From Ignisphaera sp. (GTDB lineage: Archaea > Thermoproteota > Thermoprotei_A > Sulfolobales > Ignisphaeraceae), in NCBI GenBank assembly GCA_038821645.1, contig JAWBDT010000003.1:42016-106015 (forward strand): a stretch of 64,000 bases of DNA, read 5' to 3'. Below, piece after piece: positions 1,610-21,537 of this stretch. Numbering within the stretch: the first letter of the stretch is position 1; each line of letters begins with the position of its first letter. A program made the position numbers and the translations under genes. The notes under the pieces were generated by a model. It searched no databases. It saw only the letters and a list, made by a program, of their open reading frames with translations, and was not told the DNA's origin.

Positions 1610-3859
1610 ATGAATAAGAATGTGAATTATATGGTTAAAGGTAGAGAATTTGTTGAAGTAGATTTTGGTCTCGGTAAACTTAGGATCTATGTGTATCGTT
1701 CAAATATTGTTCGTGTAACTCATATACCCTATGGAGGAAGTGTTGAAGATAGTTTTGTGATCATTAGTAGACCTATGCTCTATGGATATAGTATTGATGA
1801 TAGAGAAGGTTGTATAGAAGTTTGTACTGATGAAGTATGTGTCTATATTGATAGACATAGAAACTCTATAGATTTTGAAACCAGAGATGTAAAGCTTTCT
1901 GAAGTTGATAGAAAAGCTGTTGATCTTAAGAATTATGGTGAAGCTCTCTATAGTTTTGAACATACATTTGTTATAGATGTGGATGAAGCTCTCTATGGAT
2001 TAGGTCAACATGCTGGCTACTCATCGCATTCGGGTTTTAATTATAGGAATAGAACTGTTTATCTAGCTCAAAGGAATACAGATATAGCTGTACCTTTCAT
2101 GGTTTCAAGCAAAGGTTATGGCATTCTATGGGATATGTATTCTATGGGGGTCTTCAGCTCTAGAGGTAATAAGTTGAGGATGTGGTTTGAAGCTGGAAAG
2201 GTACTAGATTACTACTTTATTTATGGACCTGATATAGATCGTGTTATACAAGGATATAGATATTTAACAGGTAAAGCACCTCTACTACCTAGGTATGCTC
2301 TTGGATATTGGCAATCTAAGGAAAGATATGCATCTCAAGAAGAGATAGTTTCTGTAGTTAAGATGTTTAGAGACAGAGGTATACCAATAGATATTATTGT
2401 TCAAGACTGGAGATACTGGGGTAAATATGGGTGGAATGCCTTTAAATTTGATGAAGAGTATTATCCAGATCCAAAGAAAATGATTGAAGAAATTCGTAGC
2501 ATGGGTGTTAGATTAGCTATATCTATATGGCCTATTTTCGAGAAGAATACCGATATCTATAAGGAGATTAAAGAGATAGGGTGTATTATGACTGGAGGTG
2601 ATAGAGACTTTGGTCTTCTGAATGTATTCAATGAAAAGTGTAGAGAATGGTTCTGGAAGAAGATTGAAGAATCGTTCTTCAGTATAGGTGTTGATGGTTG
2701 GTGGCTAGATGCATCGGAACCAGAAGTAAAACCCCTACTTATATACACAACATGGCAAAAGGATCTAGATACAGGTAAAGGTAAGATGATTAAGTATCTA
2801 AACCTTTATCCACTTCTTGAATCTAAAGCTGTTTACGAAGGTCAAAGAAAAGTTTCGAACAAAAGAGTAGTTATACTGACTCGATCTGGTTTTGCTGGTA
2901 TACAAAGGTATGGTGTAATTAATTGGTCTGGTGATGTAACAGGTGATTGGACTACATTTAGGTCACAGATACAGGCTGGACTAAATTACTCTATCTCAGG
3001 CTTACCTTATTGGACAACAGATATAGGTGGTTTCTTTAGCGGTAACCCGGATACAGAAGGCTATAGAGAGTTATTTATTAGATGGTTCCAATTTGGAGTC
3101 TTTAACCCTATTTTTAGAGTCCATGGAACCTATTATCCAAAAGAGCCATGGAGATTTGGCGAAGAAGTAGAAAAGATACTTACGAAATTCATTAAGCTAC
3201 GATACAGATTATTGCCATATATTTACACACTTATGTGGAAGGTCTATAGCGAAGATTATACAATCATAAGGCCTCTAGTGATGGATTTTAGAGAAGATCC
3301 TGAAGTTCTAGATATAGATGATCAATATATGTTCGGACCCTATATCATGGTCTCCCCCATCACAACACCATCAACATATGAAAGAGAAGTCTATATACCA
3401 AAAGGTCTTTGGTATGACTTTTGGTCTGGAGAGAAATTCTATGGAGGAAAATACATTAGAGTTGAAGCTCCACTAGACAGAATACCACTACATATAAGAG
3501 CAGGTTCTCTTATTCCTATGGCTTCTCCAGGTATCAAGAACTCTATGGAAGAGGTGAATGAGATAGAGCTTAGGGTTTATAGAGGAAGAGATTCAGAATT
3601 CTACATATATATAGATGATGGTGAAACCTATAGATACGAGCTAGGAGAATACACATTAATACCCTTGAAATGGTCTGAAGAAGAATCCAAGCTGATTATA
3701 GATAACAAGGTAGGTAAATACAGCATAAATGATATTGTCTTCAAAATAGTTATAGTTGATAGAGAGAGAGGTGGAGGCATCGAAGAAGCTCAACCAGATA
3801 CAGAGGTTATATATAGAGGAGATAAAATAATTATTGAATTGAAAAACAACAAGTCATAG
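1610..3859 (+). CDS. GH31 glycoside hydrolase, alpha-xylosidase (XylS-like)
   Basis: GH31 motifs WLDASEP (nucleophile), WSGD (acid/base), DIGGF, RWFQFG, RVHG. Confidence 0.88.
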   Translation: MNKNVNYMVKGREFVEVDFGLGKLRIYVYRSNIVRVTHIPYGGSVEDSFVIISRPMLYGYSIDDREGCIEVCTDEVCVYIDRHRNSIDFETRDVKLSEVDRKAVDLKNYGEALYSFEHTFVIDVDEALYGLGQHAGYSSHSGFNYRNRTVYLAQRNTDIAVPFMVSSKGYGILWDMYSMGVFSSRGNKLRMWFEAGKVLDYYFIYGPDIDRVIQGYRYLTGKAPLLPRYALGYWQSKERYASQEEIVSVVKMFRDRGIPIDIIVQDWRYWGKYGWNAFKFDEEYYPDPKKMIEEIRSMGVRLAISIWPIFEKNTDIYKEIKEIGCIMTGGDRDFGLLNVFNEKCREWFWKKIEESFFSIGVDGWWLDASEPEVKPLLIYTTWQKDLDTGKGKMIKYLNLYPLLESKAVYEGQRKVSNKRVVILTRSGFAGIQRYGVINWSGDVTGDWTTFRSQIQAGLNYSISGLPYWTTDIGGFFSGNPDTEGYRELFIRWFQFGVFNPIFRVHGTYYPKEPWRFGEEVEKILTKFIKLRYRLLPYIYTLMWKVYSEDYTIIRPLVMDFREDPEVLDIDDQYMFGPYIMVSPITTPSTYEREVYIPKGLWYDFWSGEKFYGGKYIRVEAPLDRIPLHIRAGSLIPMASPGIKNSMEEVNEIELRVYRGRDSEFYIYIDDGETYRYELGEYTLIPLKWSEEESKLIIDNKVGKYSINDIVFKIVIVDRERGGGIEEAQPDTEVIYRGDKIIIELKNNKS

Positions 3860-21242: not shown

Positions 21243-21357
21243 TTGTTGTTTCCATTTGTAGATAGTTAAATCCTCATCATAATTATTCATCTATAGTGCT
21301 ATAAACCTTTAAAACCTCTAAAAATATACAGAGTTCTGTGTATTGATGATAGCTAGC

Positions 21358-21513
21358 GGGCCCGTAGCTCAGCTAGGTAGAGCGGCGGACCATGTAGAAA
21401 GGCCGAAGCTCCAGCAGCTACGGGTCTTATGACCGTATGGGATGAAATAATGCTGGAGCGTTGAAGAGATTGGAGAGACCCGTAGGTCGGGGGTTCGAAT
21501 CCCCCCGGGCCCA
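21358..21513 (+). tRNA. tRNA-Trp(CCA) with two introns (30/31: 21389-21407; 37/38: 21415-21477); CCA end not encoded
   Basis: Acceptor GGGCCCG/CGGGCCC, D stem GCTC/GAGC, anticodon stem GCGG+G/CCCGT, anticodon CCA 21411-13, T arm GGGGG-TTCGAAT-CCCCC. Both introns form BHB motifs. Confidence 0.93.
21415..21477 (+). ncRNA. Intron-encoded box C/D guide RNA for tRNA-Trp C34 and C39
   Basis: CTACGGGTCT-T-ATGA (D') and GGGATGA (C')...TGCTGGAGC-G-TTGA (D). The N+5 rule gives C39 and C34. Confidence 0.8.
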
Positions 21514-21537
21514 CTACATATATACTGTATCATTACA

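Follow-up and report, generated by a model that had tools for sequence, protein, structure and literature searches.

Introns of tRNA-Trp genes are the textbook example of introns that guide the modification of their own host transcript, and in the euryarchaeal pre-tRNA-Trp guide all four boxes of the box C/D RNA lie within the intron. The crenarchaeal case has stayed open because a box C/D consensus could not be found. In Danan et al. 2012 (PMC3326292; here and below, statements about cited papers refer to excerpts of their texts) the 65-nucleotide (nt) tRNA-Trp intron of Sulfolobus solfataricus is a highly stable circle, for which two complementarities of 7 base pairs (bp) around positions 34 and 39, and no consensus C/D boxes, are described. 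Methylated C34 (Cm34) has been reported in the tRNA-Trp of Sulfolobus acidocaldarius (Wolff et al., PMC7668247), one tRNA is listed among the enriched L7Ae-bound RNAs in an RNA immunoprecipitation sequencing study of L7Ae (PMC5539422), and the permuted C/D small RNA (sRNA) 24 of Nanoarchaeum equitans needs circularisation (Randau, PMC3491384). Here we describe the tRNA-Trp gene found in a 64,000-nt stretch of an Ignisphaera sp. genome (GenBank assembly GCA_038821645.1, contig JAWBDT010000003.1, positions 42,016 to 106,015), referred to below as the window. Comparison with related loci suggests, with a probability that we put at about 0.6, that the primary transcript of this gene is an atypical, split box C/D methylation-guide RNA. 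The most likely place of its box C is the 5' leader, from where it would pair with box D of the intron, and the complete box C/D RNA is probably the unprocessed, unspliced precursor.

The gene spans positions 21358-21513 on the forward strand (Rfam RF00005, 50.1 bits) and is confirmed as a tRNA-Trp(CCA) gene carrying two introns (Table 1). It is missed or miscalled by ARAGORN because of these two introns: no tRNA was found at the locus when introns were disallowed, and a tRNA-Phe with a single 70-nt intron, which we discarded as a miscall, was returned when they were allowed. In all eight tested relatives that are devoid of intron 1, the program run with introns gave tRNA-Trp(cca) with an intron of 54-63 nt after position 37. 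Rfam, searched at the gathering cut-off and at E values up to 10, matched only the tRNA at this locus and no C/D family. Both introns have the archaeal bulge-helix-bulge (BHB) arrangement of two 3-nt bulges and a 4-bp helix, and leave a valid tRNA after the cuts. In intron 2 the central helix, built by hand, is CUCC (21409-12)/GGAG (21472-75) with the bulges AG/C and AG/A (in bulges and boxes a slash marks the exon-intron boundary); intron 1 is BHB-like, with the helix CGGC (21383-86)/GCCG (21402-05) and the bulges GG/A and AA/G, likewise by hand. The same intron layout is present in named records of Ignisphaera and of related uncultured archaea. All elements that a first-pass annotation of this DNA had described were found in place when the sequence was checked by hand.

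For comparison, 92 tRNA-Trp loci were assembled, 81 from the order of the window and 11 from other orders of its class. A DNA search of 41 genomes contributed 29 of them (the partial locus L029 was left out), a covariance model (R1) run on 151 genomes of the class another 25, and 40 further regions the remaining 38, L082 and L083, with the anticodon CAT, having been dropped. The loci were compared by positional parsing; MAFFT misplaced GCTCCAG between loci with and without intron 1. The first intron pattern parsed 28 loci (L028 did not fit and L029 is partial), and C' could not be parsed in six of the 92.

Intron 2 carries two stretches that are complementary to the tRNA itself. The D' guide CTACGGGTCT (21418-27) is complementary to AGACCCGTAG (21476-85), and G21424, the fifth nucleotide before ATGA (21429-32), pairs with C21479, that is, C39. 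The D guide TGCTGGAGC (21451-59) is complementary to GCTCCAGCA (21408-16), and G21456, the fifth nucleotide before TTGA (21461-64), pairs with C21411, that is, C34. Both complementarities were established by hand, and both target bases conform to the N+5 rule. Each guide-plus-box pattern occurs once on the two strands of the 64-kb window, where 100 shuffles give expectations of 0.00 and 0.04. The intron had been read in the first-pass annotation as a dual guide for C34 and C39, and this stood up to comparison, since the layout was found again in most of the 92 loci and covariation with the targets was found for both guides. Guide 1 follows the 3' exon (ACCCAG with CATTGGGTCT, ACCCGG with CATCGGGTCT, ACCCGC with CTGCGGGTCT) and covaries with exon positions 42-44 in other families. 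Guide 2 pairs with intron bases +1, +2 and +3 in 72, 69 and 60 of 82 loci, the pairs at +1 being A-U in 39, C-G in 18 and U-A in 15 of them. As it pairs with bases of the intron, its substrate must be the unspliced precursor.

An intron at position 37/38 with junction-spanning duplexes for 34 and 39 is also the hallmark of the euryarchaeal pre-tRNA-Trp guide (Haloferax volcanii; Pyrococcus sR50), in which, as here, the guide fold and the splicing fold are mutually exclusive and the intron is circularised (PMC3326292, PMC4090602, PMC7994747). It could be argued that the complementarities merely aid the folding or processing of a long intron and that the boxes are relics, and the loss of guide 2 in some lineages (f2 and part of f3) would agree with that. 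This is nevertheless very improbable. The N+5 register to 34 and 39 is kept across families, with covarying guides; the guide duplexes cannot serve the splicing fold, which they exclude; and 34 and 39 are proven targets in H. volcanii (cited in PMC3326292 and PMC4090602), Cm34 being reported in S. acidocaldarius as well (PMC7668247).

Variants of the guide arrangement were seen among the relatives. In L077-L080, L084-L087 and L027 (f2 and part of f3) guide 2 has been lost and guide 1 and the internal kink-turn are retained; the f3 loci without guide 2 still have the leader GAUGA that is described below. In L026 and in L036, L037, L089 and L090 a copy of the guide 1 target (AGACCCGTAG or ACCCG...) sits before guide 1, with which it could pair as a decoy or folding aid.

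Boxes D' and C' are located between the two guides. GGGATGA (C') is invariant across 29 aligned loci, and the second nucleotide (N2) of D' pairs with the base after the C' GAUGA (C'+1) in 58 of 86 loci, where six types of pair occur. In the relatives a stem of 2-6 bp abuts GAUGA (GCC/GGC, CUCUC/GAGAG, CCUCCC/GGGAGG, CUCC/GGAG), which changes in sequence and remains paired. From this frame and the covarying stem it follows that C'/D' is a true kink-turn with a hairpin stem, and intron 2 thus possesses the internal C'/D' pair of an archaeal box C/D RNA. A loop-closed C'/D' motif with the first GA of GAUGA sheared and a '15-nt spacer' was abandoned in view of the covariation frame. Box D is given by spacing: NNGA lies exactly 15 nt past the C' GAUGA in 22 of the 23 loci of the window's family, which, counted with 7-nt boxes, makes a spacer of 12 nt. 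The same length is the commonest C'-to-D spacer among the candidate ordinary C/D RNAs of this genome, where it occurs in 10 of 17.

These 17 candidates were obtained from the genome of the window (G000) with a simple pattern, RUGAUGA plus CUGA, and mostly have 12-nt spacers; C2:58710 and C13:17872 (minus strand) are examples.

In some Sulfolobaceae and Desulfurococcaceae box D spans the splice junction, its final A being exon base 38, and such a box exists only before splicing. The spacing-defined box D ends with the last G of the intron and exon A38 (GUG/A, GCG/A, GAG/A) in L232-L235, L028, L038 and L064. It ends on A38 also in loci of the Desulfurococcaceae type (L039, L045, L053, L072-L074), with an extra U before it (AGUG/A).

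The intron offers no box C for this box D. Only CAG precedes guide 1 in the window, as the first-pass annotation had remarked, and no box C was found before guide 1 in the 28 parsed loci or in the 92 that were read, so that the arrangement of all four boxes within the intron does not apply here. A candidate is present in the 5' leader, which in the window reads TTGATGA, then TAGCTAGC, then the tRNA, with exactly 8 nt between GAUGA and the first base of the tRNA. When the loci are aligned on the 5' end of the tRNA, upstream conservation peaks only at -13 to -9 (GAUGA) and at -4 to -1. GATGA occupies -13 to -9 in 51 of the 81 loci of the order, including 21 of the 23 family loci, and in none of the 11 from other orders; for TGA at -11 to -9 the counts are 64 of 81 and 0 of 11. 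Among 46 ARAGORN-predicted tRNA genes of this genome, only that for tRNA-Trp has GATGA within its last 20 upstream bases. The motif keeps a fixed distance to the tRNA and a variable one to the TATA-like boxes. The second conserved block, -4 to -1, faces N73-N76, with which it forms 4/4 pairs in 47 of 79 distinct loci and 3/4 in 26 (UGGU/ACCA, UAAU/AUUA, UAGU/ACUA, UGAU/AUCA and CAGU/ACUG are the covarying types); 3/4 pairs form in the window. No box D opposite the leader box was seen on inspection of the 3' trailer by eye.

The leader motif covaries with the box D of intron 2. The main set comprised the 46 loci with TGA at -11 to -9 and NNGA 15 nt past the C' GAUGA. In these, leader base -8 pairs with N2 of box D in 39 (A-U 11, U-A 10, U.U 8, C-G 8, G.U 1, G-C 1), and -7 with N1 in 41 (A-U 21, C-G 16, G-C 2, U-A 1, U.G 1). 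Doubly compensated leader:box D types are (A/U)A:UU, UC:GA, CA:UG, CG:CG, GC:GU and CC:GG, and none of 10,000 shuffles matched the pairing value of the 46 loci. When no motif filter was applied, Watson-Crick pairs at -8/N2 and -7/N1 were counted in 51 and 58 of 75 loci, against merely 5-23 of 75 for the control leader positions -6 to -4. In f13, Sulfolobaceae by name, both pairs form in 12 of 12 distinct loci, in four combinations, and one shuffle in 10,000 does equally well. A further set of records under Ignisphaera and Sulfolobaceae names, in which two rows are flagged as duplicates and some genomes overlap with the first set, pairs in 24 of 27 and 27 of 27 rows and adds the type AC:GU; in the AC:GU loci box D is GUG/A, again with exon base 38 as its final A. 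L018 has lost the GA of box D together with the first of the two GAs in the leader box. This covariation indicates that the second GA of GAUGA forms the sheared pairs. In the window, G21348.A21464 and A21349.G21463 would be the tandem sheared pairs, followed by U21350.U21462 and A21351-U21461. AUGAUAG and UUGA are thus capable of the tandem sheared G.A pairs of a box C/box D pair; both are off consensus, and the box C is not adjacent to a guide.

Several observations weigh against a leader box C. Exact GATGA is absent from 30 of the 81 loci of the order, and some loci that have both guides, for instance those of Saccharolobus type (L066, L068 and L236, the last of them named Saccharolobus), differ from the window in that the leader motif is wholly absent. 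Within the window's own family 16 of 19 loci pair and 1,988 of 10,000 shuffles do as well, a test without power because box D is nearly constant there; in f10, where box D is irregular (AGUG/A), both pairs form in none of the four loci that pass the filter. Since kin are not independent, the shuffle counts given above overstate significance. A search for a terminal stem flanking the leader box and box D gave pairing at 13-28 of 46 positions, roughly what chance would give, and no such stem. Box C and guide 1 are set apart by the whole 5' exon, and the leader is covered by merely two to three RNA reads, which stem from a sister genome and not from G000. Full-text searches of the papers available turned up no report of a box C in the leader of pre-tRNA-Trp, a prior description being possible.

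The contact between leader and box D might therefore be real but serve as a precursor-specific clamp, which would hold a non-tRNA fold and time RNase P cleavage and splicing, and not as a C/D kink-turn. Methylation, if any, would then be carried out by C'/D' alone, either in the precursor or in trans by the free circle. The lack of a terminal stem and the retention of both guides in lineages devoid of the leader motif are in line with such a clamp, and half-size guide RNAs and assemblies without L7Ae keep some activity in vitro. We nevertheless consider it an unlikely explanation. A box C/D pair is recognised by its conserved GA/GA with two covarying pairs at its flank, and C'/D' follows this frame too; the box D that the clamp would leave orphaned retains the exact N+5 register to C34 and the 12-nt spacer; and both box pairs are needed for efficient archaeal methylation.

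Reads from the locus were sought in three raw-read metatranscriptomes of one study, two of which (X1, X2) gave 0 reads and therefore no test. The third run, X3, gave 16. Nine of these, with nine different starts, jump back 63 bases (21475 to 21413, with a 2-base ambiguity), which corresponds to a junction of 21477 with 21415 and agrees with the predicted cuts of intron 2. The X3 intron reads all carry the four base differences of L002, a sister genome whose gene is 97% identical, so that the circle belongs to the sister species and not to G000 itself. With this qualification, the expectation that the intron is excised as a circle was borne out by reads across the circular junction. Depth is 12-13 over intron 2 and 1-3 over the exons. 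This abundance, together with the very stable tRNA-Trp intron circle of S. solfataricus (PMC3326292), would also suit a clamp combined with methylation by the circle. Over 21328-21353 the depth is 0.85-1.8 (1.8 at the leader box) and over intron 1 it is 2, with reads reaching back to ~21330; a leader-bearing, unspliced precursor therefore exists. In X4 one contig matches, with the 3' exon alone. Four loose X3 read ends (21465-21477) read TATATCGGAAAGCAG over the circular junction, with GGAAAG in place of GGAGAG, a variant that may come from another strain or from a reverse-transcription error at or near the junction.

The circle is central to another explanation of the missing box C, put forward in the first-pass annotation. 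According to it, the guide is a circular permutation, in which the TGGAGAG that ends the intron becomes box C only upon circularisation, and splicing builds the functional ribonucleoprotein (RNP). An intron without box C at its 5' end, a circle that outnumbers the exon reads, a GAGAG-to-D' spacing that would be 14 nt in the window, and the precedent of a permuted C/D RNA that needs circularisation in N. equitans (PMC3491384) are all consistent with this. The comparison of relatives appears, however, largely to refute it, and we now give it very little credence. The check for a conserved 3' GA returned A21474, the candidate for the sheared G.A, as A in 15 and as G in 8 of the 23 family loci, which fits an A-U/G.U pair with U33 and not a kink-turn. 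GGAGAG is already constrained by its pairing with the invariant CUCC of the anticodon loop, and this accounts for the conservation of TGGAGAG. In five of the 23 family loci box D directly abuts GGAGAG/GGGGAG, so that no loop is left, and in other families the spacing-defined box D falls inside GGAGAG. In addition, the stretch before guide 1 ranges from 2 to 28 nt, and N1 and N2 of box D change together with the leader and not with the intron end, which is constant. No credible box C follows box D here, so that what defines a permuted C/D RNA, namely a box C that comes after box D in the gene and is placed ahead of guide 1 only in the circle, is missing.

We therefore return to the split guide with its box C in the leader, for which the following course of events can be proposed. 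Intron 2 would supply the D' guide for C39, the internal kink-turn, the D guide for C34 with its canonical 12-nt spacer, and box D, and the leader would supply box C, 8 nt before the tRNA. L7Ae, Nop5 and fibrillarin would assemble on this precursor-only fold and methylate C34 and C39, after which the RNA would refold into the cloverleaf with its BHB motifs. RNase P would then cut off the leader, and box C with it, and the splicing endonuclease and ligase would remove both introns, intron 2 accumulating as a 63-nt circle that holds only the internal kink-turn. We infer the protein binding, the methylations, the choice between action in cis and in trans and the order of events from the arrangement of the elements; as the first-pass annotation had suggested, the guide may act in trans on an unspliced precursor.

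Table 1. Elements of the tRNA-Trp locus, with their positions in the window and the evidence for each.
Element	Positions	Strand	Evidence
Candidate TATA box TTTAAAA of the tRNA-Trp promoter	21308-21314	+	Read from the sequence
Proposed box C in the leader, GAUGA 21345-49, kink-turn frame AUGAUAG 21346-52	21345-21352	+	Conservation, covariation
Last four leader bases UAGC	21354-21357	+	Pair with A73 and trailer (21513-21516), extending the acceptor stem
tRNA-Trp exon 1, positions 1-30	21358-21388	+	Rfam tRNA match, comparison with relatives
Intron 1, 19 nt, position 30/31	21389-21407	+	Absence from many relatives; helix by hand
tRNA-Trp exon 2, positions 31-37, anticodon CCA at 21411-13	21408-21414	+	Sequence, relatives, ARAGORN
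Intron 2, 63 nt, canonical position 37/38	21415-21477	+	Splicing helix by hand; ARAGORN in relatives; circle reads
D' guide	21418-21427	+	Pairs with 21476-85; G21424 opposite C39
Box D' (AUGA)	21429-21432	+	NNGA one nt past guide 1 in 28/28 parsed loci
Kink-turn hairpin stem CC-GUAU-GG	21433-21440	+	Stem kept paired in relatives
Box C', conserved GAUGA 21441-45, kink-turn frame AUGAAAU 21442-48	21441-21448	+	Alignment, covariation
D guide	21451-21459	+	Pairs with 21408-16 across the 5' splice site; G21456 opposite C34
Box D (UUGA), proposed partner of the leader box C	21461-21464	+	Spacing; covariation with the leader
GGAG, 3' strand of the central splicing helix of intron 2, core of TGGAGAG	21472-21475	+	Pairs with CUCC 21409-12
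tRNA-Trp exon 3, positions 38-73	21478-21513	+	Sequence, Rfam

Intron 1 (21389-21407), which occupies the non-canonical site 30/31, had gone unmentioned in the earlier annotation. It is missing in 18 of the 30 loci collected first, which read GGCGG directly followed by GCTCCAG, and is present in L001-L007, L012, L027-L029, L071-L074 and L085-L090. Two stretches associated with it, CCGAAGC at the intron 1/exon junction and AUGUAGA within the intron, were considered as box C and rejected, since most of the relatives that retain the system have no intron 1. In L029 (genome G040) site 30/31 is occupied by an intron of ~775 nt (1613-2388, minus strand) with two adjacent LAGLIDADG-like frames of 184 (PF14528, E 1.8e-11) and 61 (weak) amino acids, and what it contains looks like a broken homing-endonuclease gene within a tRNA intron. 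Upstream of the window gene, TTTAAAA (21308-21314) is the presumed promoter element of tRNA-Trp; TATA-like AACCTT(T/A)TAAAAC occurs upstream in the relatives L008, L011 and L013. In one genome of Sulfolobaceae type (G149) the same tRNA-Trp locus is found on C8, C57 and C58, each time near a contig end, which suggests a repeat or an assembly duplication.

How the proposed RNA would relate to the described systems can now be specified. In contrast to the euryarchaeal pre-tRNA-Trp guide, its candidate box C is outside the intron, in the 5' leader, so that the complete RNA would exist only before RNase P cleavage, and the target at position 39 is C here and U there. With the intron of S. solfataricus it shares the circle of a crenarchaeal tRNA-Trp intron and the 34/39 complementarity (PMC3326292); the boxes are left unexplained in the excerpts of that paper, whereas here conservation and covariation define C', D' and D, and a box C in the leader is put forward. 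As in N. equitans C/D sRNA24 (PMC3491384) and in the signal recognition particle RNA of Thermoproteus (cited in PMC7994747), the splicing machinery makes a circle, and the notion of a gene order that differs from the functional order carries over. The order of elements (C, D' guide, D', C', D guide, D) is that of ordinary archaeal box C/D sRNAs, as are the N+5 rule, the 12-nt C'-to-D spacer, the tandem GA pairs and the absence of a terminal stem, a plan that the 17 candidates of this genome follow. Unlike in these sRNAs, 69 nt containing the 5' exon and intron 1 lie between GAUGA and D' in the window, so that the C-to-D' spacer departs from 12 nt; AUGAUAG takes the place of RUGAUGA, and UUGA that of CUGA; and the RNA would guide the modification of itself. 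If the leader box C is real, partners of a box C/D pair can sit apart with a folded tRNA half between them, a layout that automated guide-RNA finders would miss.

Extended beyond the window, the analysis leads us to lean slightly towards the view that in Ignisphaera, and in much of the Sulfolobales/Desulfurococcales order, pre-tRNA-Trp forms a box C/D RNP that is split and dismantles itself, its guide being destroyed by RNase P and by splicing alike. If true, such an RNP would enforce methylation first and processing afterwards, and would account for the apparent absence of box C from crenarchaeal tRNA-Trp introns. A leader box C would, if true, give these introns a complete guide architecture and a pre-tRNA 5' leader a function, and would couple methylation, 5' processing and splicing through one RNA switch, with clear predictions that are testable in genetically tractable Sulfolobaceae.

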